A DNA stretch of 64,000 nt from a virus, in the IMG/VR virus record IMGVR_UViG_3300002461_000812, positions 1-64,000 of that record, one strand, 5' to 3'. Made by a program: the position numbers and the translations under genes. Positions 4,582-40,809 of the stretch are shown piece by piece (the stretch's first letter is position 1; every line of letters starts with the position of its first letter). The notes below the pieces were generated by a model. That model did not search any database, was not told the DNA's origin, and worked only from the letters and a program-made list of their open reading frames with translations.

Positions 4582-5299
4582 CGCCCACTGCCTCCTGCTT
4601 CTGTTTCGCCTTTGCCGCTTGCTCCTCGTCGAGGAGCCGACAGAGCTTTTTGAGCGCCTCGTGTGCGTAGATCAAGCGTGCCGAGGGTACCTTGCCCCAC
4701 TCCATGACACCAGCCTCGTACGCCTTGGAGGTGAGGGCGCAGTCTGCGACGACCTGCTCGATGTTGTCGTCTCCTTCGAGCACCCTGTTGATCAGGTCGA
4801 AGAGCCACTCGTCGATCTGGTCCCGGTAGGGCTCCAGATCGATCTCGGCCATGCCATCGAAAGCGCCCTTTTTGTCGAGGACATTGATCTCGACGTGGTC
4901 GAGCGCATGGTCGAGCCAGACGCCTTCATCCAAGACTTCCAGTACGCCCGCGGAGTTCGGGAGGTTCATCCCGATGCATGCCTTCTGGAGGACGTAGTAC
5001 CCGAGGTCGTTCGTGCCGCCCATCCAGTAGAGCACCTGCTCGGGGCGCTCGTGCCTGCCGTAGTGGGCGAAGTGGACGCTGGAGATGTCGCCGTGGACGT
5101 ACAGTTCTCCACCAGCCAGAACGATTGCCTCGAACCAGAGGTGAGAGTTCCAGCCCCCCTTCTCGTCGGTGTACGGCTGAAAGCAGAGCCAGCTCCGCGA
5201 GTCGCGCGACCGGATGATGTGCTTCTCGAACCCCTTACGGGCCTGCTCCTGGTACTTCGCCAGGTAGTCCTTCGAGGTTTGCCGCTTCGTCTGGCTCAC
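4571..5299 (-). CDS. hypothetical protein (242 aa)
   Basis: Protein-like part of ORF 4571..5545. GTG 5299 lies 2 nt after the thyX stop (VSQTKRQTSKDYLAKYQEQ...). Confidence 0.65.
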   Translation of the reverse strand: MSQTKRQTSKDYLAKYQEQARKGFEKHIIRSRDSRSWLCFQPYTDEKGGWNSHLWFEAIVLAGGELYVHGDISSVHFAHYGRHERPEQVLYWMGGTNDLGYYVLQKACIGMNLPNSAGVLEVLDEGVWLDHALDHVEINVLDKKGAFDGMAEIDLEPYRDQIDEWLFDLINRVLEGDDNIEQVVADCALTSKAYEAGVMEWGKVPSARLIYAHEALKKLCRLLDEEQAAKAKQKQEAVGDGG

Positions 5300-7672: not shown

Positions 7673-7685
7673 TGTACTCAGTACA
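7673..7685. promoter_or_regulatory. 13-bp perfect palindrome TGTACTCAGTACA (candidate operator)
   Basis: Same 14-mer CTGTACTCAGTACA as at 29335-29348. Confidence 0.5.
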
Positions 7686-7863: not shown

Positions 7864-8691
7864 ATGGACCAAAAAGCCAACAAATCCGACTCGGAAGAGA
7901 TCGAGAAGCTCCGTGCGGACCTGGAGCGGGAGCGCGCCACCAACCGGGCCGTCGAGGCCAGGGTCACCAGGTACGTCCGCGAACTGGAGCGCTCGAACGC
8001 CGAGTTGGAGCAGTTCGCCTACGCCGCCAGCCACGATCTCCAGGAGCCCCTGCGGATGGTGGTCCAGTTCGCCACCCTCCTGGAGCGCGACCTGCGGGCC
8101 CAGTTCCCCGAGGCCGTCACGGGCGATCTGGAGGTCTGCCTCAAGCACATGGGCAACGGCGCCGAGAGGGCCAAGAGGCTCATCGACGGGCTCCTCTCCT
8201 ACTCAAGGGTGGGGCGCCAAGCGGAGTTCGTCAGCGTGTCCCTGGATGGGGCGCTGGATGAAGCCATCGCGCTCCTCAACGGCGCCGTGACCGAGGCGGG
8301 CGCGGTCATCACCAGGGACCCGCTACCGGTCGTCTGGGGCGACATGGGGATGGTGTCCAGGGTCTTCTTGAACCTCATCACGAACGCCATCCGTTTCGCG
8401 AAGGATGGCGAGCCAGCTCGCATCCATGTCACATGCGAGGACCTGGGTGACGAACTGGAAGTGTCGGTGAGCGACTCGGGCATCGGCATCGACCCGCGTC
8501 ACGCCGAGCGCATCTTCACCATCTTCGCTCGTCTCAATCCCGAGAAGAACGGGACGGGCATCGGACTCGCGGTCTGCAAGAAGATCGTCGAAAAGCATGG
8601 GGGTCGGATCTGGGTGGAGTCGGTTCCAGGCCAGGGAGCGACCTTCAAGTTCACGCTCCTCAAGCAGGAGCCCGGCAACCCTGGCGTATGA
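7864..8691 (+). CDS. cytoplasmic sensor histidine kinase (coiled coil + HisKA + HATPase_c, with no TM or sensor domain)
   Basis: H-box FAYAASHDLQEPLR, N-box NLITNAIRFA, G1 DSGIGID, G2 GTGIGLAVCKKIVEKHGG. Only about 55 aa of coiled coil precede the H-box. Confidence 0.9.
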   Translation: MDQKANKSDSEEIEKLRADLERERATNRAVEARVTRYVRELERSNAELEQFAYAASHDLQEPLRMVVQFATLLERDLRAQFPEAVTGDLEVCLKHMGNGAERAKRLIDGLLSYSRVGRQAEFVSVSLDGALDEAIALLNGAVTEAGAVITRDPLPVVWGDMGMVSRVFLNLITNAIRFAKDGEPARIHVTCEDLGDELEVSVSDSGIGIDPRHAERIFTIFARLNPEKNGTGIGLAVCKKIVEKHGGRIWVESVPGQGATFKFTLLKQEPGNPGV

Positions 8692-9140
8692 CCATCACCA
8701 CCCCGCCAAAGAAGAACAAAGCCGATGTCCTCCTGGTCGAGGACAACGCGGCCGACGTGTACGTGACGCGGCTCGCCTTCGCGAAGGGCCGCGTTGCGGT
8801 GTCGCTTCACGTCGCAACGGACGGCGACGACGCCATGCACTTCCTTCGCAAGCAGGGGAAGTGGCTCGGTGCACCGCGTCCGGATCTCGTGATCCTCGAC
8901 CTCAACATGCCGCGTCGCAACGGGAGAGAGGTCCTCGCCGAGATGCGAGCTGACCCGTTGCTGCGCCGGATCCCGGTGGTGGTCTTGACCAGCTCGTCAG
9001 CAGACGCGGACATCTTCGACGTGTATGATCTCGGTGCGAACGCTTGCTTCACCAAACCAAGCGACTTCGATTCCCTCACCCAGATCGTCCTGACGTTGGA
9101 AGATTTGTGGTTCGTGCTCGGTCAGCTTCCGTCGAGGTGA
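8688..9140 (+). CDS. single-domain response regulator (CheY/Rcp1-like receiver)
   Basis: LLVEDN acidic pocket, DLVILDLNMP phospho-Asp, VVVLTSS and FTKP Lys. ATGA overlap with the kinase gene. Confidence 0.9.
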   Translation: MTITTPPKKNKADVLLVEDNAADVYVTRLAFAKGRVAVSLHVATDGDDAMHFLRKQGKWLGAPRPDLVILDLNMPRRNGREVLAEMRADPLLRRIPVVVLTSSSADADIFDVYDLGANACFTKPSDFDSLTQIVLTLEDLWFVLGQLPSR

Positions 9141-9144
9141 TGCC

Positions 9145-9972
9145 GTGACCACCTACTCCATCCTCCTGGTCGAGGACAACGCAGGCGACGCCGACTACAT
9201 CCAGCGCGCGCTCCGACGGAGCGAGGACGGTGTTCGGTTCGAGGTCTCGGTCGTTGGATGGCTGAACACGGCGCTCACCACCGTTGGGGCTAGGTCCTTC
9301 GATGCGGTCCTGCTCGACCTGTCCCTTCCGGACTCCCAGGGCCTCGACACCGTCGTCCAGTTCCTCGCCTCCGCTCCCCAGCTCCCGGTGATCGTCATGA
9401 CCGGTCACGACGACATGGTCACCGGGATCAACGCCGTCCGGTACGGTGCCCAGGACTACCTCATCAAGGGGGACACGGGGGACCGTTCCCTGGAGCGCTC
9501 GATCATCTACGCCATCGAGCGCAAGCGGGCCGACATGGTCGGCAAGAAGCTGCTCCGAGCGAGCATCGGAACGCTCTCCAGCGCGGGCGGTGGAGCGACA
9601 GCGCTCGTCCACGAGCACCTGGCACACGTTGCCGACTTCCTCCACGACCTGCGCGCGTACATCGCGCGCAACGCGCCCGCGCACGCGGACAGCATCGAAG
9701 CCATCGCCTCCAACCACCAGATCGACGTGGTGCTCAGGGAGATCAGGGCCATCGTCCAGATGGACGTGCAGTCCACGAGGCCGGGGACGGCGCGCCCCAA
9801 GAAGATCTCGGAGGAGGCGTTGCAGGCGGTGTCGTCCTTGTCCTCCGCCTCCGGAAGGCCGGTAGCTCCGTCCTCTGCGCGCGGAGCCCTGCTCTCGGTG
9901 ATCGAGTCGTCCGGCGAGATCGGAGAAAGGTACGCCGTTCCGGGCGTGAAAAATGGTTCCGACGATGAGTGA
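9145..9972 (+). CDS. response regulator: receiver domain plus a C-terminal helical region of about 150 aa with unknown function
   Basis: ILLVEDNAGD, DAVLLDLSLPD, VIVMTGH and DYLIKG. The C-terminus (HEHLAHVADFLHDLRAYI...) has no recognisable DNA-binding output. GTG start 4 nt after the preceding stop. Confidence 0.85.
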   Translation: MTTYSILLVEDNAGDADYIQRALRRSEDGVRFEVSVVGWLNTALTTVGARSFDAVLLDLSLPDSQGLDTVVQFLASAPQLPVIVMTGHDDMVTGINAVRYGAQDYLIKGDTGDRSLERSIIYAIERKRADMVGKKLLRASIGTLSSAGGGATALVHEHLAHVADFLHDLRAYIARNAPAHADSIEAIASNHQIDVVLREIRAIVQMDVQSTRPGTARPKKISEEALQAVSSLSSASGRPVAPSSARGALLSVIESSGEIGERYAVPGVKNGSDDE

Positions 9973-10522
9973 CTTGGATGGCATTCGGCGAGACGTAGCC
10001 AAGCTGGCCTCTGACCTGTCGCGTGGCGTGAGCGCGACATCGGTCCTGATCGAGCAGATCCAGAAGCAGCTCAACGAGGTCGCTCGTCGGCTCGACGAGA
10101 AGGTCCGCGACGACCACCAGGGCGCGTTGAAGCTGGCTGCCGACCTGGCGGAGATCAAGACCAAGCTCGACGGGCTGCGGACCGACGCCGACCACCTCTC
10201 CGGAACGCCCGAGCGCATCGCCAAGCTGGAGGCCGGTCACGAGCACGTCAGGGCCGACATCACCGGCAAGCACGACATGGCGAAGGACCTGGCGAAGGTC
10301 ACGGTCGAATCGCACGAGAAGAAGGAAGACCGCCTTCTGGAGGAGAAGAGGATCAAGGCCGAGCAGCACAAGGCCAAGCTCCAGTTCTGGGGGGCCGTGG
10401 CGGTCGTCTCGTTGCCCGGCATCATCGCGCTCCTCTGGCACCTCTTCGGTCTTCCAGGATCCCCGCCTACGACTCCCTCGGCGCCCCGACCGCCGACGCA
10501 CTCTGCGGCTGAGCCTCACTGA
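9965..10522 (+). CDS. coiled-coil protein with C-terminal transmembrane anchor
   Basis: ATG 9965 overlaps the receiver gene stop by 8 nt. Long heptad-like region followed by FWGAVAVVSLPGIIALLWHLFGL. Confidence 0.7.
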   Translation: MSDLDGIRRDVAKLASDLSRGVSATSVLIEQIQKQLNEVARRLDEKVRDDHQGALKLAADLAEIKTKLDGLRTDADHLSGTPERIAKLEAGHEHVRADITGKHDMAKDLAKVTVESHEKKEDRLLEEKRIKAEQHKAKLQFWGAVAVVSLPGIIALLWHLFGLPGSPPTTPSAPRPPTHSAAEPH

Positions 10523-11963
10523 CGGCCGGCAAGCGGATGGCAGGGATGTACGGCTTCGACTCGTCGCCGACGACCGTCGGATCGATCCACCGGGTGAGGA
10601 TGGCGATCCACTCGTCCGGAGCCTTCGGCGGCTGCCCACGCTCCATGAGCTGGCGGTAGGCGTTCGAGGTCGGTTCGTCGATCGTCCAGACCTGGTACTC
10701 CGCCTCCTGGAGCTTCTGCGCGTCCTTCGTGGAGAGCGGCAGCTTCCCGCGCCGGATGTAGCAGCGCTCGTGGCCGCGTCGGTCGTGCCGGTACGCCAGC
10801 TCGCGAGAGATCTGCGCGAGAGCCTCACGCGAGCGCGCGCCCGAGTCCTCGATGAGCTTCTTCTCCATCCGGACCGTGTAGTAGGGCTTCGGGATGAGGC
10901 CCTGGACCTTGAGCCTCTTGCTCTTCTTGCCCCAGTCGTGGCGCTGGTTGTTGGTCAGCCGAGTCTCGATGACGAGCTGGCGGTGGTCGTTGACCACGGC
11001 CACCAGGTGCGTCGAGATCCAGGGCGCCATGTTCAGCACCGGGTGATGCCAGATCCCGTCCATGCACACGATGTTCGGCATGATGTAGTTGTCCTCCGGC
11101 TCGACGGCCTGGATGACCTCGACCACCCACCCGCCGGTCGGTCCGGTCCACACCACGTACCCGAGGATCGCCGCGGCGATGACCTCGCGGGCATCCATGC
11201 CGACGGCTCTCGCCTTCCACTGGTACTCAGCGAGAGAGACGCCGTGTCCGAGGCCGAAGTAGCAGGCGTCGAACGGGAGCGGATCGGGGAACGGAACCCG
11301 GGAGCCAGCCTCGTCGATCCGATCCGTGTACTGGTCGCTGTCCTCCTTCGAGGGCAGCTTGCCCTTGCCCAGGTCGGCCCAGTTCTGCTTCGCGATCTTC
11401 GTGGTCGTGTAGTGGTCGGCCGCCTCCCAGATGGTCGTGAAGTCGCTCGGCGAGAAGTCGAAGATGCGCGCGTTGCGCATGGTGGCCCAGAGCTGCCGAG
11501 CGAACTCCTTGCCACGGTCGATCGGTGCCCCGTCGAGAGTCCGGAGCGCACCGCTCTCGTCGCGGGCAGCCTGGAGCAACGACTCCATGATCCGGAGGTA
11601 CCCGGCGAGAGTCTCGTCGCCTGGCTTGTGCCGTCCCCTGCTTCCGATCGAGGCCGCGACGGCCGGCGTGCGCTTGGCCGCTGCATCGACCCGCGCGGCC
11701 ACCCGTTCGGCGGCCCGCTCACGGAGCCACCGGTACCGAGCTGGATCGGTCACCATCGCCCCGGTGAAGGCGAGCGCCAGGCGCTTGTGGAGGTGCTCGT
11801 TCAACCCCTGCACCGCGCGTGTGGTGGCGCTCTCGAAGGCGGCGTTGAGCGATGCCTGGACGCCGAGCTTGGTCAGCGCATCGACGTACCAGTCGGCCGC
11901 CTCGTCGATGGCGCGCTGCTCGGTCGCGGTGATGCCGAGGGCCTGTTCCACGGGGGTTCTCAC
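10467..11963 (-). CDS. hypothetical protein (498 aa)
   Basis: Protein-like part of ORF 10467..12065. GTG 11963 forms a GTGA overlap with the upstream stop (VRTPVEQALGITATEQRAIDEAADWY...). The 3' end converges on and overlaps 9965-10522. Confidence 0.7.
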   Translation of the reverse strand: MRTPVEQALGITATEQRAIDEAADWYVDALTKLGVQASLNAAFESATTRAVQGLNEHLHKRLALAFTGAMVTDPARYRWLRERAAERVAARVDAAAKRTPAVAASIGSRGRHKPGDETLAGYLRIMESLLQAARDESGALRTLDGAPIDRGKEFARQLWATMRNARIFDFSPSDFTTIWEAADHYTTTKIAKQNWADLGKGKLPSKEDSDQYTDRIDEAGSRVPFPDPLPFDACYFGLGHGVSLAEYQWKARAVGMDAREVIAAAILGYVVWTGPTGGWVVEVIQAVEPEDNYIMPNIVCMDGIWHHPVLNMAPWISTHLVAVVNDHRQLVIETRLTNNQRHDWGKKSKRLKVQGLIPKPYYTVRMEKKLIEDSGARSREALAQISRELAYRHDRRGHERCYIRRGKLPLSTKDAQKLQEAEYQVWTIDEPTSNAYRQLMERGQPPKAPDEWIAILTRWIDPTVVGDESKPYIPAIRLPAVSEAQPQSASAVGAPRES

Positions 11964-25318: not shown

Positions 25319-25627
25319 TCACCTCCGACCCATCCCGCCCTGGGAAGAGCAGATCTGGACCGTCACCCGGATCTTCCGGGCGGCAGCGGCGGCCATCATG
25401 AGCGATCGGATCGACTCGGCGTGCGACCCGCGCTTGCCCACCAGGCTGCCCGCTTCCTCCTCGCGGCACGTCACCTCGAAGGCAACGAAGCCGGTCGGCG
25501 ATACGGCGCGCTGGATGACGATGTCACCTGGATGATCGACGATCGACTTCGCCATCGTCGAAAGCAACAGCTCCAACTCGTCCACCGCCTGTTCGAGCGA
25601 CTTGGTCTGCATCATCGGCTTCTTCAT
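25319..25627 (-). CDS. KH-domain RNA-binding protein (KhpA/UPF0109-like)
   Basis: LLLSTMAKSIVDHPGDIVIQ...VAFEVTCREEEAGSLVGKRGSHAESIRSLM...IRVTVQI, including the GxxG-like GKRG loop. Start at ATG 25627, or alternatively 25645. Confidence 0.7.
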   Translation of the reverse strand: MKKPMMQTKSLEQAVDELELLLSTMAKSIVDHPGDIVIQRAVSPTGFVAFEVTCREEEAGSLVGKRGSHAESIRSLMMAAAAARKIRVTVQICSSQGGMGRR

Positions 25628-25674
25628 CGGGATAGGATCTCCCATTCTTCTTCTGCTCCTTCTCCCTCTTGTGG

Positions 25675-26453: not shown

Positions 26454-28259
26454 ATGGCCCAACCCCGTCTGTACGGTTCCGTGATCCTCCACGGAGACAC
26501 CTGGCACGTCCACGCTGAGCCCCACGTCATGATGAAGGCGCGCCGCGTTTTCACGCGCGCGGTGCTCAAGCACGGGACGATGGAGCTGCGCGACTCGGAG
26601 GAGATCTGCAAGGACCTCCTCTGGTTCATGGAGCGCTACCCGCTCTCGATGGAGATCGAGCACCGGGCGCACATGATGGAGAGCGCCAAGCAGTACGACG
26701 TGCGCGCGGACGCGTTCGCCGGGATCCTCTCGGGCCGGAAGGAGCCGAAGGAGTTCGAGCTGGCGCTGCCCCCGCGGCAGTATCAGCGCGTCGCCGCCGA
26801 CCTGGCCCTGCGGGTCAAGGGGCTCCTGATCGCCGACGAACTGGGCATCGGCAAGACGCTCATGGCCATCGCCATGCTCACCGACCCGCGCACGAGGCCG
26901 GCGCTCGTCGTGACGATGACGCACCTGCCGAAGCAGTGGGAGCGCGAGATCGCGAAGTTCGCTCCGAAGCTCACGACGCACATCATCAAGAAGGGCACGC
27001 CCTACGACATCGTGAACAAGAAGCCGCCGAAGGGGCAGCTCAGCCTCATCGAGCCGGAGTTCCCGGACGTGCTGATCATCAACTATCACAAGCTCCAGGG
27101 GTGGAGGAACACGCTCGCCGGCATCATGCGGTCCGTCGTCTTCGACGAGGTCCAGGAGCTACGCCGGGACGAGAGCGACAAGTACAAGGCGGCCGAGCAC
27201 ATCGCTCACGCGGCAGCGTTCCGAGTCGGTCTCTCCGCCACGCCCATCTACAACTACGGGAGCGAGTTCTACACCGTGATCAACGTGCTCCGGCCCGACG
27301 CCCTCGGGACTCGGACCGAGTTCGTGCGCGAGTGGTGTGGCGGCGTCCAGGACATGCAGGGGCGCTCGAAGATCTCCGAGCCCAAGGCGTTCGGCACCTA
27401 TCTCCGTGAGCAGGGCATCATGATCCGGCGCACGCGCCGGGACGTGGGTCGCGAGCTGCCTGCGCTCACGCGCACGCCGCACTACGTGGACTCCGACGTG
27501 AAGGCGCTCGACAAGGTGCGCAGCTCGGTCGTGGACCTCGCGCGCTTCCTTCTAGAGCGCCAGGGCTCGACCTTCGACCGGATGAAGGCGGGTGGCGAGC
27601 TGGACTACAAGCTCCGCCAAGCCACCGGTCTCGCGAAGGCGCCGTTCGTGGCCGAGTTCGTCCGGATGATCGCCGAGTCGGGGGAGAAGGTCGTCCTCTA
27701 CGGATGGCACCACGCCGTCTACAAGATCTGGGAAGACCGCCTCAAGGGGTTCTGCAAGGTCGCCTTCTACACCGGCGACGAGAGCCCGACCCAGAAGGAC
27801 AAGGCGCGGAGCGACTTCATCGAGGGAGACACCCAGATCCTCATCATGAGCCTGCGCTCGGGCGCGGGGCTCGACGGTCTCCAGGGAGTCTGTCGGACCG
27901 TCGTCTTCGGCGAGCTGGACTGGAGCCCAGGCGTCCACGAGCAGTGCATCGGACGCGTCTACCGGGACGGGCAGCCGGACCCGGTGGTGGCCTACTTCCT
28001 CGTGTCCGAGGAGGGCTCGGACCCGGTCATCGCCGACGTGCTCGGCCTCAAGAAGTCCCAGATCGAAGGGGTCAGGGACCCGGACGCCGAGCTGATCGAG
28101 AAGTCGGAAGCCCCCGAGCACGGCATCCGGAGGCTGGCCGAGTCGGTGATGAGGTCGCAGGGAATCGACCCGGCATCGTTCACTCCGCTTGACAAACCCA
28201 AATCAGCCGATAGTATCGGAGAAACAGCAGCAGAAGCAGTCAACGCAGGAGGAGAGTAA
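26454..28259 (+). CDS. SNF2-family helicase/ATPase
   Basis: PRQYQ, ADELGIGKT (I), FDEVQELR (II), GLSATP (III), SLRSGAGLDGL, QCIGRVYRDGQ (VI). Confidence 0.9.
   Translation: MAQPRLYGSVILHGDTWHVHAEPHVMMKARRVFTRAVLKHGTMELRDSEEICKDLLWFMERYPLSMEIEHRAHMMESAKQYDVRADAFAGILSGRKEPKEFELALPPRQYQRVAADLALRVKGLLIADELGIGKTLMAIAMLTDPRTRPALVVTMTHLPKQWEREIAKFAPKLTTHIIKKGTPYDIVNKKPPKGQLSLIEPEFPDVLIINYHKLQGWRNTLAGIMRSVVFDEVQELRRDESDKYKAAEHIAHAAAFRVGLSATPIYNYGSEFYTVINVLRPDALGTRTEFVREWCGGVQDMQGRSKISEPKAFGTYLREQGIMIRRTRRDVGRELPALTRTPHYVDSDVKALDKVRSSVVDLARFLLERQGSTFDRMKAGGELDYKLRQATGLAKAPFVAEFVRMIAESGEKVVLYGWHHAVYKIWEDRLKGFCKVAFYTGDESPTQKDKARSDFIEGDTQILIMSLRSGAGLDGLQGVCRTVVFGELDWSPGVHEQCIGRVYRDGQPDPVVAYFLVSEEGSDPVIADVLGLKKSQIEGVRDPDAELIEKSEAPEHGIRRLAESVMRSQGIDPASFTPLDKPKSADSIGETAAEAVNAGGE
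28189..28216 (+). promoter_or_regulatory. sigma70-like promoter TTGACA-N16-TAGTAT inside the 3' end of the SNF2 gene
   Basis: CTTGACAAACCCAAATCAGCCGATAGTAT. Confidence 0.6.
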
Positions 28260-28260
28260 C

Positions 28261-29190
28261 ATGGGTGGACAGCTCATCGAGGGGAAGGGTGTTTCGCGGA
28301 CGAACGGGTTTTCGGTCCCCGCGAACATGCTCACGGTCATCGGGGTAGACACCCCGCATCGGTCGCAGGTCGAACATCGCCTGTACGACAAGCGCGTCCA
28401 CATGCCGGCCCCGCACGGGCACGCCGACATCGCGGACAACCACCCGCACGTCCTCTCGATGATGGAGTTCGGCGTCCAGTTGCCGGTCATCATCGAGGTC
28501 GAGGAGATCGACGGCAAGGACGTGTACCTGGTCGCCGAGGGTCGCGGGCGCGTGCTCAAGCAGCGCATCGCCGACCGTCTGCTCAAGGCGGTGGGGCGCG
28601 ATCCCAAGCCGGTGCCGTGCATCGCTCGGCGGGTGAACGACAAGATCGCGAAGCTCGACCAGTCGCTCATGATCGTGCTCAACGAGCACCGGGCCGAGGA
28701 CTCGCCGATGAACCGGGCGGAGAAGGCCCAGTACCTCCTCCAGACCGGCAACTCGGCGGAGAGCGTGGCGCGCCTGTTCGGGGTCTCCGAGCAGACGATC
28801 ACCGAGTGGGTGAAGCTCTGCGAGATGCCGAGCTTCGCTCAGGCCGCGGTCGAGGCCGGCAAGGTCTCGGCGAGCGCGGTGGTCAAGCTCCACGGCCTCT
28901 CGAAGGACGACCAGAAGGGTGCCCTCGACCAGCTCATCTCCGAAGGAGGTGGGAAGGCGACGGTCAAGAAGGCGAACGCCATCGCGAAGAGCACCAAGAA
29001 CGGTGGCTCGTCCGTGGTCGTCGTCGCACCGTCCAAGCGCGCCATCAAGCGCGCGATCGAGAACGGCAAGGGCGTCCTTTCGGACGACATCATCCTCGGG
29101 ATGCGGATCGCCATCGGCGACACGCCGCCCAACAAGGTGAAGGGCCTGGTCGCCCTGCTCAGGGGTGACTCTGGCGGCGACGCCGAGTAG
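28261..29190 (+). CDS. ParB-like nuclease/N-terminal domain protein with HTH
   Basis: ATG 28261 follows AGGAGGAG. LVAEGRGRVLKQR, then an HTH-like stretch SAESVARLFGVSEQTITEWV. Confidence 0.6.
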   Translation: MGGQLIEGKGVSRTNGFSVPANMLTVIGVDTPHRSQVEHRLYDKRVHMPAPHGHADIADNHPHVLSMMEFGVQLPVIIEVEEIDGKDVYLVAEGRGRVLKQRIADRLLKAVGRDPKPVPCIARRVNDKIAKLDQSLMIVLNEHRAEDSPMNRAEKAQYLLQTGNSAESVARLFGVSEQTITEWVKLCEMPSFAQAAVEAGKVSASAVVKLHGLSKDDQKGALDQLISEGGGKATVKKANAIAKSTKNGGSSVVVVAPSKRAIKRAIENGKGVLSDDIILGMRIAIGDTPPNKVKGLVALLRGDSGGDAE

Positions 29191-29204
29191 ACTCTCGGCT
29201 GCAT

Positions 29205-29333
29205 CGATCCTCGACGAGGTGGGTTGCCAGGTGCCAACACCTGTAACCGGGCGTCGCGTAGTGGGAGGAGGGGCCCCTCCTCCCTCGGGGCCCGTGGGTT
29301 CAGTCCCAGAACGACCCACCCCGTCGAGGATCG
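29205..29333 (+). other. highly structured non-coding element: 20-bp long-range stem enclosing nested hairpins
   Basis: CGATCCTCGACGAGGTGGGT (29205-29224) pairs with ACCCACCCCGTCGAGGATCG (29314-29333) at 19 of 20 positions. Inside are CAGGTG-ccaa-CACCTG (29228-29243) and the 22-nt palindrome GGGAGGAGGGGCCCCTCCTCCC (29263-29284). Confidence 0.55.
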
Positions 29334-29335
29334 AC

Positions 29336-29348
29336 TGTACTCAGTACA
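29336..29348. promoter_or_regulatory. 13-bp perfect palindrome TGTACTCAGTACA (second copy)
   Basis: Identical to 7673-7685. Sits between the structured element and the terminator-like hairpins. Confidence 0.5.
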
Positions 29349-29376
29349 TGACGGATCCACGTCGAAGCGCGTGGAC

Positions 29377-29406
29377 CGCGGTCGCCGGTCAGTGATCCGC
29401 GTTTTT
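29377..29406 (+). terminator. possible intrinsic terminator (imperfect stem + T5)
   Basis: CGCGGTC...GATCCGCG followed by TTTTT. Confidence 0.4.
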
Positions 29407-29479
29407 GGCCTCGACTCGCGGTGCTGGTGTAGATTCGGCGCAGCGCTCGGGCTACGCTCCGGCGCAGGAGGCCCATCAC

Positions 29480-30001
29480 ATGGCCAGCACGGTCACCACG
29501 TTCGCCGTCTTCCAGACCCTCCTTGCGAGGTCGGTGGACTTGGATCCCAACCTCGACTCCGCGACGAAGTCTTCGATGAAGACCCGCGTCCAGAATCTCG
29601 TGCGTGAGCAGGAGATCGTTCTGGACCAGCCGAAGGCGCTGTCCGTGACCGGAGCGGTCACCGAGAACGCCTCCTCGAAGTCTCTCGACGTGGCCATCGC
29701 GTCCCTCGGGACGAACCGGGTGGAGTTCGATCCCATCCAGCTCTTCATCCCCGTCACGGTGGACGGGACGCGTGGCATCCGCGGCTTCATGCCTGGTCAC
29801 GCGGGCACGAGCGTTCTGCCGCTCGTCGCTCAGACGGGCATCACGGTCCGCTACCGGCTTGCCTCGGGCGACCCGTGGGCGACCTTCGACCGAACCACCG
29901 TCCTTCCCGAGGTCACCTGGATCCAGTTCGCGGTGGACATCGCTGACCAGATCGCAACCTCGTCTCTTCCCGCCATCCACATCCACGCCGAGCAGGTCTG
30001 A
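29480..30001 (+). CDS. hypothetical protein (173 aa)
   Basis: Internal ATG 29480 of ORF 29405..30001, preceded by GCAGGAGG. Confidence 0.7.
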   Translation: MASTVTTFAVFQTLLARSVDLDPNLDSATKSSMKTRVQNLVREQEIVLDQPKALSVTGAVTENASSKSLDVAIASLGTNRVEFDPIQLFIPVTVDGTRGIRGFMPGHAGTSVLPLVAQTGITVRYRLASGDPWATFDRTTVLPEVTWIQFAVDIADQIATSSLPAIHIHAEQV

Positions 30002-30003
30002 AC

Positions 30004-32979
30004 ATGAGCCTCGCCGATCTTCTCTCCGAGAGCATGGCCGACCTCGTCGAAGTCAGCGACGAGACCCTGCTCAACTTCCTCAAGACCGACCAGGGCAAGA
30101 AGAAGGCGGCCAACGCCATCTACGCGTCCAAGCACAAGGACTTCCGAGGCAAGAACGACGACGGCGAGCGCTCGGTGCTCTACAACGCGGGCTCGGGCGG
30201 GACGCAGAGCTGGCCTGTCGATGGGGCATCGGCGGAGCAGTTGCTCAAGCTCCTCAAGGCCGACCCGAAGGCCATCGCGAAGCTCAAGCTGGGCGAGGAA
30301 GCGGAGCCGACCGAGGCCGAGCTGGAGGACGAGTACACGGCGATGATCTCGGCCCTCAGCGAGGAGACCGGCGAGCCGCTTTCCCTCCTGGAGGCGATGA
30401 ACGGCAAGATCAGCACGTTCCTCACCGTCTTCTCGTCGATGCTCACGCAGTACGACCAGCTCCTCATCAAGAACGAGACGAAGCGCGGCGGTCGGGGGAA
30501 CATCTACCGCCTGAGCCTCTGGTTCGAGGCGCTCGACAAGGTGAAGCAGCGCGTCTCCTCGATGCTCGGGGACGACAGCACGGACGCCATCAAGGCGCTC
30601 CGCGCGGCCGTGGACAAGGAGTTCACCTCCGGCAACCCCGCCGACAAGTTCCGCAAGGCGATGGACGCCTACATCGAGAAGGGCACGCTCCCGAAGATCC
30701 CGATCTCCAAGGAGGTCAAGGCCCAGGTCCAGGCCGAGAAGAAGGCGGCCAAGGAAGCGGCTGCCAGGGCGAAGGCTGACAAGGTCCAGGGCGGGCCCGA
30801 GAGGCTCGTGGCTGGCCAGGGTCGGCCGGGCCAGAAGTTCGACTACGGCGGCGTGACGATCTCGACGACGCTCCACGACATCGGCGGCAAGAACGAGGAC
30901 ATCGTCGCTGGCGTCGGTCGTCTCGACGAACTGGGCGGTGGCCGGTACAGCGGCGGCGGTCGCGGTGGCGATCCGCGCTGGATCGAGGCGAAGTACCCTG
31001 GCGTCGCGAAGGACGGCACCTCGTTCCGCAAGGGCGAGCGCGTGCTCTACTTCCCGAACGGCAAGAGCTACTACGTCGGCAAGCAGGCGGAGAAGGAGTG
31101 GAAGGACTTCCTCTCGGCCAAGGGCGACGAGGAGAGCATGCCGTACGCGGAGGCGGCGGACGGCGGCGCAGCCGAGGCCAAGAAGACGCTCGACATGCTC
31201 CTCAAGGGCTCGAAGGTCGGGAAGCGGATCACCCTCAAGGACCTGCGTCTGCCGAAGAGCGTCGCCAAGTACCTCACCCACCTGGTGGCGTCCGGGGCCG
31301 ACTTCGCCGACGGTACCAGGGTGCTTCTTCGTCCCAAGGACGAGAAGGGGAACTACGTCCCCGACGAGTACATCATCGGCGGCGTGGGCGGTCGAACGGA
31401 GTCGCTCGATCTGAGCCGCCTCAGCGGCCAGCTCGAAGAGGCGCTCTCCGAGCCGCTCCACGAGGAGCAGACCGCCCACCACCACTACGACGGCAAGAAC
31501 TGGTACGTGGACACCGGCTTCGTCTCCGCCTCCGAGAAGGCGATGCCCGGCTTCTCCCTCTCGCACATGGGCATGGGCGAGTTCTCGCTCAAGGGTCCCG
31601 ACGGCGAGATCGAGTTCGACCGGATGCGCGGCAAGGACTTCCCGGGCCAGGTCGGCCGGAGCCACAAGCTCTACGACAACAAGGACGGGGCCCTCATCAA
31701 GAAGCTCATCGCGGCGATGAAGGGCAAGTCCCAGGAGATGAAGGCCGAGAGCCTCGACGAGGCGGTCTCCGGGGCCATCACCGGGGCCGCCGGCCTGCTG
31801 TTCGCCAAGCTGGTGAAGGGTGGCGTGAGCCGCGACGACATCAAGCTCTCCGGCAACTCGGTCAGCGGGACCAACAACGGACACCCCTTCCGCGTCGAGT
31901 TCGAGGACGTGAGCGGGGGCAAGGTCCGGGTGGAAGTCTTCGTGGACGACAAGTCGCGTGGCGGCGGCGCGGTCCCCCCGGACGCGGTGGCGAGCAACAT
32001 GGGCAAGGCGGCCCTCTCGATCATCTCGCTCACGAAGTCCTCGAAGACCGAGAGCCTCGCCGACAGCCTCGACGAGGCCAACCTCTCCTCCAGCTCCAGC
32101 TACAAGGAGATCAAGAAGGAGGCCGGCAAGTGGGCGAAGAGCTTCGCCGCCGACCTCATGAAGAAGATCACCCCGAAGCCGAAGTCGATCGCGGTGGTCA
32201 ACCCGGACATGGGTCGGCCCATGGCGAACTGGGACTACCGCATCCACTCGAAGTTCGACATCACGCTGGCCTCGGGCGAGACGCTGTCCGCGTTCGTGTC
32301 GATGAACGTCGCGGACGGTGAGTGCTCGGGCAACGTCACCCTCGACGACAAGTGGGGCGGCACCATGGCCACCGCTCGGCGCGGGACCAGGGACCAGGCC
32401 ACCTGGGTCCTCGTGGACGAGCTGGCGACCCACCTGAGTCGTGGGGAGCAGAACGAGTCCCTGGACGAGGCGCAGCGCGGAGCGCCCGGCCTGGCTTTCG
32501 ACGACGAGGACGCGGCCACCAAGCCCGGCGCGTTCAAGATCAGCTCCAAGGCGATGGCCATCTACAAGGGCGCGCTCGGTGACCAGTGGGAGGGGCCGGA
32601 GTCCACGGTCTTCAAGCGCTACCACGGCGTCATCACGGGCCTGAGCCAGCAAGAGCTGCTCGACCTGTTCGATGCCGAGCGCATGGACCTCGCCCAGGAC
32701 ATGATCGCGAGCAAGCCCAAGGCGGCCTTCAACAAGTGGCTGGCCAGGGCAGCGAAGGTCAGCCCTGCCCTCGGGAAGCTCGTCCGGTCTCGACCGGACT
32801 GGTCGTCCATCCTCTTCTACATGACGGTCATGCGCATCTCCGGGCGCGACATGGCCGACATCATCCTCAAGCGGTACTTCGAGACCGAGACCGACCACAT
32901 CGGCGCCGTGAAGGCGAAGATGAAGGTCGAGGATCTGGAAGAAGCCATCCGCTCGTCGCGCGACTCCTCCTTCGGCTGA
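30004..32979 (+). CDS. large hypothetical protein (991 aa) with a repeated ESLDEA motif
   Basis: ORF track. Lys/Glu-rich with plausible composition. No catalytic motif recognised. ESLDEA occurs at aa 582-587 and 818-823, and ESLADSLDEA at aa 683-692. Confidence 0.8.
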   Translation: MSLADLLSESMADLVEVSDETLLNFLKTDQGKKKAANAIYASKHKDFRGKNDDGERSVLYNAGSGGTQSWPVDGASAEQLLKLLKADPKAIAKLKLGEEAEPTEAELEDEYTAMISALSEETGEPLSLLEAMNGKISTFLTVFSSMLTQYDQLLIKNETKRGGRGNIYRLSLWFEALDKVKQRVSSMLGDDSTDAIKALRAAVDKEFTSGNPADKFRKAMDAYIEKGTLPKIPISKEVKAQVQAEKKAAKEAAARAKADKVQGGPERLVAGQGRPGQKFDYGGVTISTTLHDIGGKNEDIVAGVGRLDELGGGRYSGGGRGGDPRWIEAKYPGVAKDGTSFRKGERVLYFPNGKSYYVGKQAEKEWKDFLSAKGDEESMPYAEAADGGAAEAKKTLDMLLKGSKVGKRITLKDLRLPKSVAKYLTHLVASGADFADGTRVLLRPKDEKGNYVPDEYIIGGVGGRTESLDLSRLSGQLEEALSEPLHEEQTAHHHYDGKNWYVDTGFVSASEKAMPGFSLSHMGMGEFSLKGPDGEIEFDRMRGKDFPGQVGRSHKLYDNKDGALIKKLIAAMKGKSQEMKAESLDEAVSGAITGAAGLLFAKLVKGGVSRDDIKLSGNSVSGTNNGHPFRVEFEDVSGGKVRVEVFVDDKSRGGGAVPPDAVASNMGKAALSIISLTKSSKTESLADSLDEANLSSSSSYKEIKKEAGKWAKSFAADLMKKITPKPKSIAVVNPDMGRPMANWDYRIHSKFDITLASGETLSAFVSMNVADGECSGNVTLDDKWGGTMATARRGTRDQATWVLVDELATHLSRGEQNESLDEAQRGAPGLAFDDEDAATKPGAFKISSKAMAIYKGALGDQWEGPESTVFKRYHGVITGLSQQELLDLFDAERMDLAQDMIASKPKAAFNKWLARAAKVSPALGKLVRSRPDWSSILFYMTVMRISGRDMADIILKRYFETETDHIGAVKAKMKVEDLEEAIRSSRDSSFG

Positions 32980-32986
32980 CGTTCTC

Positions 32987-33628
32987 GTGTACCGCAGGTG
33001 GACCGAGAAGGAAGACGCCCGTCTCCAGTTTGACTGGGGCGTCTTCACGGTCGCTACGCTGGCGAAGCGGCTGGACAGGACCCCGTCTGCCGTCGTCCAG
33101 CGTGCGTACCACCTCGGGCTCGGACCGCCGTCGCGGAACACCGTGACCGTGGTGACGCTCGCGAGGACCACCGGCTACGACAAGTCGCAGATCAGAAGCG
33201 CGGCCAAGGCGCTCGGGATCCACATCGGTCGGGTGCCGAGCACGGCCATCTCGACGAAGACCACGGTGCGCTGGTCGGCCATCTCCGAGGAGGACCAGGA
33301 GAGCATCTTGGAGTTCCTCGGCGGTCGCCCAGACGGAACCAAGATTCGCGCCGAGACCAAGGGCGCATGGGGCGGTCCTGCGCGTGGTGGCGGCCTCAAG
33401 CCGACCCACTGCGTGTTCTGCCAGAAGAACGACCGACCGCACTACGCCAAGGGCGCGTGCGTGCGGTGCTACGATCAACAGAGAAAACAACCACCACCGC
33501 AACCGCAACCCCGAACAGGAATCTCCCCATGTCCTCCCGTCTCTTCATCGGAAACCTCTCCTACAACGCCACCGAGGCTGAGCTTCGCGCAGCATTCGCA
33601 GACCGAGGCTACGTGCCCCGGATCGTGA
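32987..33628 (+). CDS. SANT/Myb-like plus HTH DNA-binding protein with a C-terminal Cys cluster
   Basis: GTG start. RRWTEKEDARL, TLARTTGYDKSQIRSAAKALGI, CVFC...CVRC. The last ~100 nt overlap the next gene in another frame. Confidence 0.55.
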   Translation: MYRRWTEKEDARLQFDWGVFTVATLAKRLDRTPSAVVQRAYHLGLGPPSRNTVTVVTLARTTGYDKSQIRSAAKALGIHIGRVPSTAISTKTTVRWSAISEEDQESILEFLGGRPDGTKIRAETKGAWGGPARGGGLKPTHCVFCQKNDRPHYAKGACVRCYDQQRKQPPPQPQPRTGISPCPPVSSSETSPTTPPRLSFAQHSQTEATCPGS

Positions 33629-33900
33629 CCCTCGTCACCGACCGCGAGACCGGCCAGATGCGCGGTTTCGGCTTCGTCGAGCTGGAGTCCGAGCAGAAGG
33701 CTCGCGAGGCCATCCCGGTCGTGGACGGCACCATGGTCGGCGGACGACCCATTCGGGTCAACGAAGCCCACGAGCGTGAGCAGCGAGGAGGGTCCGGCGG
33801 CGGCAGGCGCCCCCAGGTCGATCACCGAGGACCCCCGCCCGACCCGGAGCGGAATGGCCGTGGTCGTCGTGGCAGGGGTGAGGATCGCGACCGCTGGTGA
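33529..33900 (+). CDS. RRM-type RNA-binding protein with an Arg/Gly-rich tail
   Basis: RNP-2 LFIGNL, RNP-1 RGFGFVEL, tail GGSGGGRRP...GRGRRGRGEDR. Confidence 0.85.
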   Translation: MSSRLFIGNLSYNATEAELRAAFADRGYVPRIVTLVTDRETGQMRGFGFVELESEQKAREAIPVVDGTMVGGRPIRVNEAHEREQRGGSGGGRRPQVDHRGPPPDPERNGRGRRGRGEDRDRW

Positions 33901-40736: not shown

Positions 40737-40809
40737 GTCCGCGTAGCTCAGGGGATAGAGCGGTCGCTTCCTAAGCGAATGGTCGGAGGTTCGATTCCTC
40801 CCGCGGGCG
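40737..40809 (+). tRNA. tRNA-Arg (anticodon CCT, reads AGG), no encoded CCA
   Basis: Hand-folded cloverleaf: acceptor GTCCGCG/CGCGGGC (one G-T pair), D arm GCTC-AGGGGATA-GAGC, anticodon stem-loop GTCGC-TTCCTAA-GCGAA, T arm GGAGG-TTCGATT-CCTCC, discriminator G. Confidence 0.9.

Follow-up and report, generated by a model that had tools for sequence, protein, structure and literature searches.

The tRNA cluster of phage T4 encodes, together with its tRNAs, the small stable non-tRNA RNAs known as RNA C and RNA D (species 1 and 2), which are co-transcribed with the tRNAs and whose role is unknown (PMC3014915). Few small RNAs of phage tRNA clusters have a defined and well-supported fold, and the family described here adds a compact, covariation-supported one. 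It was found in the IMG/VR virus record IMGVR_UViG_3300002461_000812, a complete phage record of 186,003 bp with direct terminal repeats (G000 in the following), whose first 64 kb, with a G+C content of ~65%, are the stretch analysed here and called the window. The gap at 29191-29479 of this window, between a ParB-like gene upstream and the gene of a 173-amino-acid (173-aa) protein downstream, had been described from its letters as one highly structured, non-coding unit of 290 bp that marks a module boundary, and as a possible structured non-coding RNA (ncRNA) or 3' untranslated region (3'UTR) element, parS-like centromere or loading site for the ParB-like protein, or replication origin or packaging site. 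Comparison with related phages changes the annotation of this supposed parS/origin region, which now comprises the gene of an RNA, an operator-like motif that recurs in the genome, and the promoter leader of the next gene. The structured unit has 131 nt, not 290 bp. The best explanation overall, judged rather likely, is that 29204-29334 is the gene of a stable structured ncRNA of ~131 nt, encoded on the + strand, which may act in trans.

This RNA is a new family, absent from Rfam 15, of a kind that is already known, the small stable RNAs of phage tRNA clusters. With T4 RNA C and RNA D it shares the genomic setting and, presumably, a co-processing with tRNAs, a likeness drawn from the description of those RNAs; it differs from them in having its own conserved four-way junction and in surviving in genomes that have lost the cluster. 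By their place in tRNA clusters, the copies of the array-bearing relatives belong to the T4 RNA C/D type, and the copy of the window lies outside any cluster. Like tRNA (RF00005), the RNA has a four-way junction with the same order of arms, a hairpin (H3) that resembles a T arm and, within arrays, the place and the spacing of a tRNA gene. Unlike tRNA, it has a terminal stem (P1) of 22 bp instead of 7, a first hairpin (H1) of 6 bp with a 4-nt loop that lacks the GG of a D loop, a second hairpin (H2) that ends in a 4-nt loop and offers no 7-nt anticodon loop, a loop of only 4-6 nt in H3, and a 4-nt spacer between H3 and the 3' strand of P1.

A four-way junction closed by a long terminal stem

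The segment 29201-29337 folds with a free energy of -87.4 kcal/mol, against -57.6 ± 4.9 kcal/mol for its shuffled versions (z = -6.12), and none of 200 shuffles was as stable; its minimum-free-energy structure is also the centroid. Comparable values are reached by three divergent versions of the element (-6.12 in the window, -6.66, and -6.38 in L012), and RNAalifold independently predicts the identical 48 pairs. The description as highly structured holds for 29204-29334 and fails for 29335-29480, a stretch that is not conserved and where z is -0.58 and 60 of 200 shuffles fold equally well. Within the element, the individual features that had been noted from the sequence are present: the pairing of the arms 29205-29224 and 29314-29333, which extends to 21 nt at 95% complementarity (29204-29224 with 29314-29334), the 6-bp hairpin and the perfect 22-nt palindrome.

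The anatomy of the RNA is collected in Table 1. An additional G-C pair (29226/29312) can form on P1 in this phage, and the single A.C mismatch of this stem (29217/29321) is found in all eight aligned sequences. No spacer separates H2 from H3. Large insertions are found in L012, where H2 is much longer and branched on the same base and H3 is replaced by a 42-nt hairpin; they add 84 nt to the element, with junction and P1 intact. The element of L016 carries a 2-nt deletion. Together with the hairpin-confined insertions of L012, this deletion excludes a coding frame, as had been supposed from the sequence of the gap, and a coding explanation is also at odds with substitutions that are concentrated at compensating pairs. 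As a side observation, a 156-kb ENA contig (L007, 3990-4134) ends within H2 in a run of only G and C, which is probably an assembly artefact at a strong hairpin.

Comparison with known RNA families gave no assignment. A scan of the window at the Rfam 15 gathering thresholds assigned no family to the element, none exceeded chance in the region at E ≤ 10, and the best sub-threshold matches, which lie partly outside the element, are at chance level (Actinomyces-1 with 21 bits against a threshold of 39, CcsR1 with 11 against 65). A tRNA was rejected, as ARAGORN makes no call here and RF00005 has no match on 29100-29560 at E ≤ 10, and in the arrays the neighbouring tRNAs are all called and the element is passed over. 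Transfer-messenger RNA, tRNA-Sec and permuted tRNA were considered in view of the 6-bp stem and 4-nt loop of H1 and the T-like H3, and are unfit in the number of arms and in the loops. No self-cleaving ribozyme (hammerhead, twister, twister-sister, hairpin, hatchet, pistol, HDV-like) was detected at E ≤ 10, and no CUGAUGA/GAAA core is visible.

Table 1. Features of the RNA element, its counterparts in tRNA arrays and its surroundings (positions of the window; positions of the respective contig for L016, L017 and L175)
Feature	Position	Strand	Description
Structured small RNA gene	29204..29334	+	P1 first to last base, four-way junction; fold z, covariance models, RNAalifold, covariation
P1, terminal stem	29204-29225 with 29313-29334	+	21 pairs and a single A.C mismatch (29217/29321)
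P1, 5' strand	29204..29225	+	Invariant blocks UCGAUC and CGA(C/U)GAG; invariant A 29217 opposite C 29321
Hairpin H1	29228..29243	+	CAGGTG-CCAA-CACCTG; 6-bp stem; CCAA tetraloop identical in all lineages
Junction strand, H1 to H2	29244..29247	+	(U/G)AAC; UAAC here; conserved in alignment; GAGC in L175
Hairpin H2	29248..29294	+	Conserved base CGGGC/GCCCG, conserved internal loop GCG(C/U)AGU, variable apical stem
H2 apical stem	29263-29284	+	Perfect 22-nt palindrome; variable in relatives
Hairpin H3	29295..29308	+	UGGG-UUCAGU-CCCA; like a shortened tRNA T arm; loop UUCUGU or UUCG in relatives
Junction strand, H3 to P1	29309..29312	+	GAAC; invariant in 8/8 sequences
P1, 3' strand	29313..29334	+	Pairs with 29204-29225
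Element of L016	P1 4678-4806	tRNA strand	tRNA-Val(cac) 4606-4677 before; tRNA-Leu(gag) from 4811
Element of L017	P1 5244-5374	tRNA strand	tRNA-Val(cac) 5171-5243 before; tRNA-Leu(gag) from 5378
Element of L175	P1 9695-9825	tRNA strand	tRNA-Pro(cgg) 9621-9694 before; tRNA-Val(cac) from 9831
KhpA-like KH protein gene	25319-25645	-	RNA-binding candidate
ParB-like helix-turn-helix gene	28261..29190	+	Pfam HTH_ParB E = 4.4e-7; PHROG 1033 ParB-like E = 2.8e-17
Palindromic 13-mer TGTACTCAGTACA	29336..29348	.	TGTAC-N3-GTACA; outside the RNA fold; recurs in the genome
Decamer GACGGATCCA	29350..29359	+	Matches spacer between two tRNA-Arg genes of relatives
Weak intrinsic-terminator-like hairpin and T5 run	29380..29407	+	Sole match of a consensus scan (chance expectation 0.3)
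Conserved leader of the 173-aa gene	29420..29479	+	GGTGCT; -10-like GTAGAT 29429-29434; Shine-Dalgarno AGGAGG 29466-29471
173-aa gene	29480..30001	+	Synteny anchor of the clade; no Pfam or PHROG match
RRM protein gene	33529-33900	+	Downstream of the element

Covariation and conservation in one phage clade

Searches for homologues of the 173-aa protein and the ParB-like protein recovered contigs from a single clade of uncultured phages with genomes of ~180-200 kb. A first covariance model (R1) was made from the window and its three closest relatives, and a second one (R2) was rebuilt from eight sequences; on the element they score 168.9 and 158.7 bits on the + strand, compared with 50.7 and 47.1 bits on the - strand, and the model searches found one copy of the element per genome in six lineages. 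These are the window with L003 and L004, L006, L012 (equivalent to the complete genome G002), L016 (G001), L017 (G003) and L175. The eight sequences that represent them were fitted to the covariance model for the analysis of covariation; MAFFT misaligned the insertion-bearing L012.

The sequence-only reading had proposed a search for covariation in related phages, and the fold is indeed conserved there: 20 of the 48 pairs show double compensatory changes and 97.9% of the cells of the alignment are paired. In 500 shuffles, the fraction of paired cells, the count of covarying pairs and the covariation score all stay below the observed values, and when the 3' partners are slid by ±1-3 columns, pairing falls to 34-50% with at most four covarying pairs. 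All five helices are supported by covariation. Double changes affect 9 of the 21 pairs of P1 (99.4% of cells paired), three of the six pairs of H1 and two of the four pairs of H3 (100% of cells paired in both), and five of the nine pairs of the apical stem of H2. The pairing partners of the element lie 89-170 nt apart. The level of conservation points in the same direction, as the element is 87.0% identical to that of L006, the closest divergent relative, a value close to those of the flanking genes (88.7% and 86.2%) and far from that of the spacer behind it (54.5%).

The family was found only in this clade of ~190-kb, 65% G+C, T4-like uncultured phages. Neither a DNA search of INPHARED with 28200-30200 nor a tblastn search of the phage collection with the 173-aa protein gave a match, and a search with the SNF2 helicase returned distant phages only. 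Related loci in IMG/VR were not recovered by ParB alone, and an exact 26-mer of the 3' core had no match there; degenerate core patterns recovered as true members only G001, G002 and G003. A pattern scan of JGI metagenomes gave chance matches only. A scan of GTDB genomes gave at least 120 matches, and no member was found among the 80 matches listed after rescoring with the covariance model, which was also applied to 14 new IMG/VR pattern loci. Model R2 had no match in 401 genomes of Actinomycetota.

A unit of tRNA arrays, retained after their loss

Most relatives carry a large tRNA array immediately after ParB and a second one after the 173-aa gene and its neighbour. In three lineages (L016, L017 and L175) the element is a unit of this second array and lies on the tRNA strand, its 5' end being the base right after the upstream tRNA and its 3' end stopping 3-5 nt short of the next tRNA. 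The tRNA genes that flank it do not encode CCA. The assignment to the + strand is made mainly because of the orientation of the tRNA arrays and the location of the variable G.U pairs, since the variable pairs traverse G.U on this strand (C-G / U.G / U-A at alignment columns 25/227, 54/170 and 55/169). This setting on the tRNA strand argues for an RNA gene on the + strand, and against a parS, an origin or a packaging site. That a functional folded RNA is encoded on the + strand is very probable from these comparisons, and the part of the earlier proposal that named a structured ncRNA is borne out by covariation, by G.U on the + strand and by the position in tRNA arrays; the 3'UTR half of it fits the arrangement of this phage only, not that of the relatives.

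The arrays themselves are variable in this clade, where they are gained or lost wholesale among otherwise syntenic phages. Two arrays with more than 30 tRNA genes in total surround the 173-aa gene in L008/L175 (4370-6934 and 9545-14433) and in L009, L011, L014, L016, L017, L034 and L036. By comparison, G000 has three tRNA genes, and ARAGORN finds in the window only a tRNA-Arg at 40737.

The element is located directly behind ParB in G000 and G002, two complete genomes that retain the RNA without tRNA arrays and without a Ro60 gene, a neighbour of the element in some relatives that is considered below. The RNA is therefore independent both of Ro60 and of the arrays. Two lineages with no more than 56% identity between their ParB proteins have kept it after losing the arrays, and its persistence after tRNAs and Ro60 had been discarded argues for a role of its own. 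The likeliest history is that the arrays were lost and the RNA was kept, as two pieces shared with array-bearing relatives (the decamer GACGGATCCA and the leader of the 173-aa gene) persist downstream of it. The clade offers a natural experiment in this respect, with relatives that have arrays of more than 30 tRNAs beside Ro60 and relatives that keep only the RNA.

Proposed maturation and function

In the array-bearing relatives, the cuts that release the tRNAs would also release the RNA, with RNase Z or an equivalent enzyme acting at its 5' end and RNase P at its 3' end, because its first base follows the discriminator base of a tRNA with no encoded CCA, and only 3-5 nt separate its last base from the next tRNA. 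The released RNA would keep a 3' tail of 3-5 nt. Such a maturation of tRNA type is judged probable from the gene arrangement, and would show how a passenger RNA in bacteria can rely on flanking tRNAs for its processing. As for transcription of the element, we infer it from sequence. In G000, where no promoter-like site was seen ahead of the element, the RNA would probably be made by read-through of the operon that contains the ParB-like gene and, farther upstream, genes of UvrD-type and SNF2-type helicases; the transcript would be trimmed back to the long stem, which could shield it from exonucleases.

The most likely role would be that of a trans-acting, protein-binding RNA whose docking surface is formed by the conserved block of the stem, the mismatch and the junction, and which could do without the tips of H2 and H3; its protein partner need not be a phage Ro60. 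More specifically, a scaffold or decoy for proteins is proposed tentatively. It has also been considered that the RNA could be the founding member of a class of phage ribonucleoprotein (RNP) RNAs, excised by the tRNA-processing machinery, independent of Ro60 and redirecting host RNA metabolism or neutralising an RNA-targeting defence, a proposal that is bold and rather unlikely to hold. The invariant stem block, the A.C mismatch and the GAAC/GAAC junction would then dock a phage RNA-binding protein, for which the RRM and KH proteins are candidates. Less likely than this RNP class would be a small catalytic RNA built on a new core. In each of the four carrier genomes tested (G000-G003), the RRM protein gene follows the element on the same strand at a distance of 3.6-4.7 kb, as it does at 4.1 kb in L175; it is absent from six other Ro60 phages. 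Whatever its partner, the comparison defines a concrete construct of 131 nt for work on expression, processing and pull-down.

Several points weigh against this interpretation. The evidence comes from six lineages of one clade, and covariation represents few independent events. The counts of pairs barely split the two strands (366 of 382 cells on the + strand versus 361 of 382 on the - strand), and the mismatch that is an invariant A.C on the + strand is a G.U on the - strand. No tRNAs flank the copy of this phage, so that the proposed maturation route is not applicable to it as such. The RRM gene, finally, is a marker of the clade and is also present in a sub-clade of lower G+C content (L177-L180) whose 14.5-kb locus lacks the element, a negative obtained with search filters off.

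Alternative explanations

Phage T7 has RNase III sites that fix the 3' ends of its mRNAs and shield them, and conserved blocks with a fixed mismatch in a long helix have the look of the reactivity determinants of RNase III substrates. The element could be of this sort, a processing or stability element acting in cis, whose 22-bp stem is a host RNase III signal or one of RNase P type that separates segments of a transcript: in the arrays it would split neighbouring tRNAs, and in this phage the ParB mRNA would owe it a defined and shielded 3' end. The helix attains the length that RNase III needs, the element begins 13 nt past the ParB-like stop codon with no promoter-like site ahead of it, and another 4-6 pairs can be added to the stem in L006 and L012. 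As in the RNase III stems of T7 early mRNAs and rRNA operons, a long helix with a conserved irregularity flanks a structured RNA in a polycistronic transcript. A conserved four-way junction, like the invariance of the CCAA loop and the conservation of the internal loop, is, however, more than a processing stem requires, and it is in the conservation of the enclosed three-hairpin junction, and in a cleavage that is hypothetical, that this RNA departs from those stems. The tRNAs of the arrays already supply sites for RNase P and RNase Z, other spacers there lack such an element, a search of the genome found no RNase III encoded by the phage, and no U tract follows P1, all of which makes a function in cis improbable.

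A second possibility is suggested by the Ro60 genes of some relatives. The Y RNAs known so far share a conserved, bulged helix close to their paired ends, and the element could be such a partner of Ro60/Rsr, with the mismatch-containing terminal stem binding Ro60 and the three hairpins forming a tRNA-like effector as in Deinococcus Yrn1; phages without a Ro60 of their own would use the Rsr of the host. A genuine Ro60 ortholog (vWA_Ro60 E = 7.9e-16, TROVE E = 8e-7) is encoded 2.2-2.8 kb downstream on the same strand in L175, G001 and G003, which agrees with the rule that Ro60-linked Y RNAs lie within 4 kb on the same strand (Chen et al. 2014, PMC4201824), while G000 and G002, which have no Ro60, do not conform to it. 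The order of terminal stem, D-like, middle and T-like arms resembles the Yrn1 layout of PMC4201824, and both the present RNA and YrlA (RF02553) or Yrn1 combine paired ends, forming a long stem with a conserved irregularity, with a multi-hairpin tRNA-like module. Moreover, no YrlA was detectable with Rfam near the Ro60 genes of L175, G001, G003 and Myxococcus phage Mx1, the four loci tested, which would leave the place of their Y RNA vacant.

The distribution of the two genes speaks against this connection. The RNA is kept under selection in G000, where no TROVE domain or Ro60 gene was found, and in G002, both of which are complete genomes. Conversely, among 57 IMG/VR loci of this Ro60 subtype, the element was found within ±6 kb only in the two that were already known; ten whole or partial Ro60-bearing records, several of them incomplete, have no element anywhere, even though in some of them Ro60 is 67-76% identical. 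Mx1, whose Ro60 (45% identical) is the best match to this subtype in a cultured phage, has no element either, and folding of its inter-tRNA gaps by hand gave no analogue. Since RNA and Ro60 occur without each other, a role as a Y RNA is unlikely, a possible use of a host Rsr notwithstanding. The hallmarks of YrlA are also missing: the YrlA model has no match at E ≤ 10, near-invariant D and T arms with canonical loops are absent, as is the GNCGAAN0-1G motif, and the nearest string of the 5' strand (GACGACG or CUCGACG) is not conserved as a motif (cf. PMC4201824). The proximity of Ro60 and the RNA can be explained by the location of both in the tRNA-array region of one clade. In the three relatives the Ro60 ortholog (TROVE and vWA_Ro60; 12064-13719 in L175) is followed by an RRM protein gene (13918-14265 in L175).

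Less probable still is a selfish or decaying element, either a mobile miniature inverted-repeat element or a degenerate, tRNA-derived relic of a lost array. Terminal inverted repeats of 21 nt flank ~90 bp, the element is found at three kinds of site (behind ParB, in a Pro-Val interval and in a Val-Leu interval), the T arm of the adjacent tRNA-Val (GUGGGUUCGACCCCCAC) is similar to H3 (GUGGGUUCAGUCCCAG), and the neighbouring decamer and leader look like remains of the arrays. A mobile element would hardly be restricted to one copy per genome with no transposase nearby, and internal hairpins that covary and use G.U indicate selection on RNA rather than on transposase-binding ends. A relic, for its part, should have decayed as the adjacent spacer did, and the element equals the flanking genes in conservation and outlived the arrays in two distant lineages.

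An action as double-stranded DNA, as a parS-like centromere, replication origin or packaging signal, is very improbable: the element adjoins the ParB-like gene in G000 and G002 and the outer bases of its stem are palindromic (TCGATC...GATCGA), but in L016, L017 and L175 it is unlinked from ParB, lying 6-7 kb away, past two other genes and within a tRNA array, it is present once per genome without repeated half-sites (the sole other match in the genome is the 22-nt palindrome against itself on the opposite strand), its distant arms covary with G.U tolerated and its hairpin insertions preserve the RNA junction and fold, and there is no turn of the GC skew at the site, with the end of the genome and its direct terminal repeats 29 kb away.

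The remainder of the gap and neighbouring genes

With the ncRNA gene ending at 29334, the rest of the gap consists of the recurring 13-bp motif, a degenerate spacer (29350-29419) and the conserved leader of the next gene, which replaces both the notion of a single unit of 290 bp and that of a module boundary. Exact copies of TGTACTCAGTACA, the 13-bp palindrome noted in the sequence-only reading, occur at 7673-7685, 29336-29348, 71698-71710 (inverted) and 170821-170833 of the 186-kb genome, well above chance, and L006 carries the symmetric variant GAACTCAGTTC. The motif looks like an operator and might be bound by a dimeric regulator, for which the response regulator of the phage itself is a possibility. 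One copy is found ~180 bp upstream of a phage two-component signalling operon (7864-10522), and another between a hairpin and a Shine-Dalgarno sequence.

The decamer GACGGATCCA is present downstream of the element in L003, L006 and L012. In L016 and L017 it lies between tRNA-Arg(acg) and tRNA-Arg(ccg), the last pair of the first array, upstream of the 173-aa orthologue, and it is probably a relic of the array. Farther downstream, the TCCACG/CGTGGA pair, GACCGCGGTC and the T5 run can be read in the sequence as had been reported. The terminator-like site at 29380-29407 is not conserved in L003, L006 and L012. An intrinsic terminator or simple 3' hairpin was rejected as an explanation of the element itself, as no T run follows P1 and this only terminator-like site is 45 nt beyond it. 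The leader of the 173-aa gene, in contrast to the spacer, contains invariant columns in the multiple alignment, and its local alignment with the region upstream of the 173-aa orthologue of L016 scores 42, against 17.6 ± 2.3 for shuffles.

The 173-aa protein is 82-98% identical between lineages whose ParB identity is 56-95% (82-87% where that of ParB is 56-71%). The gene that follows it (30004-32979) varies among the relatives from 404 to 1142 aa.

Two further observations concern the tRNA arrays of the relatives. In L175, upstream of Ro60 (~11390-11800), there are four tandem tRNA-Ser-like genes with long variable arms and, as read by eye, the anticodons UGA, GGA, CGA and GCU; three of them have a non-canonical T loop (GGGUCAGGACCUCC), they were missed by ARAGORN, and the first has only a sub-threshold Rfam match, to tRNA-Sec. 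Between ParB and the tRNA-Tyr gene that opens the array, L009 (3960-4350) and also L008, L011, L014, L034 and L036 have a conserved leader of ~250-300 nt. It contains a TTGAC-type promoter, an open reading frame of 30-50 aa that is called in most of them, the box CCACCAGGAGGGTACC and a hairpin (GGCCGCCCGGGAAACC..GGCGGCC), and could represent a leader peptide or a second unannotated RNA.

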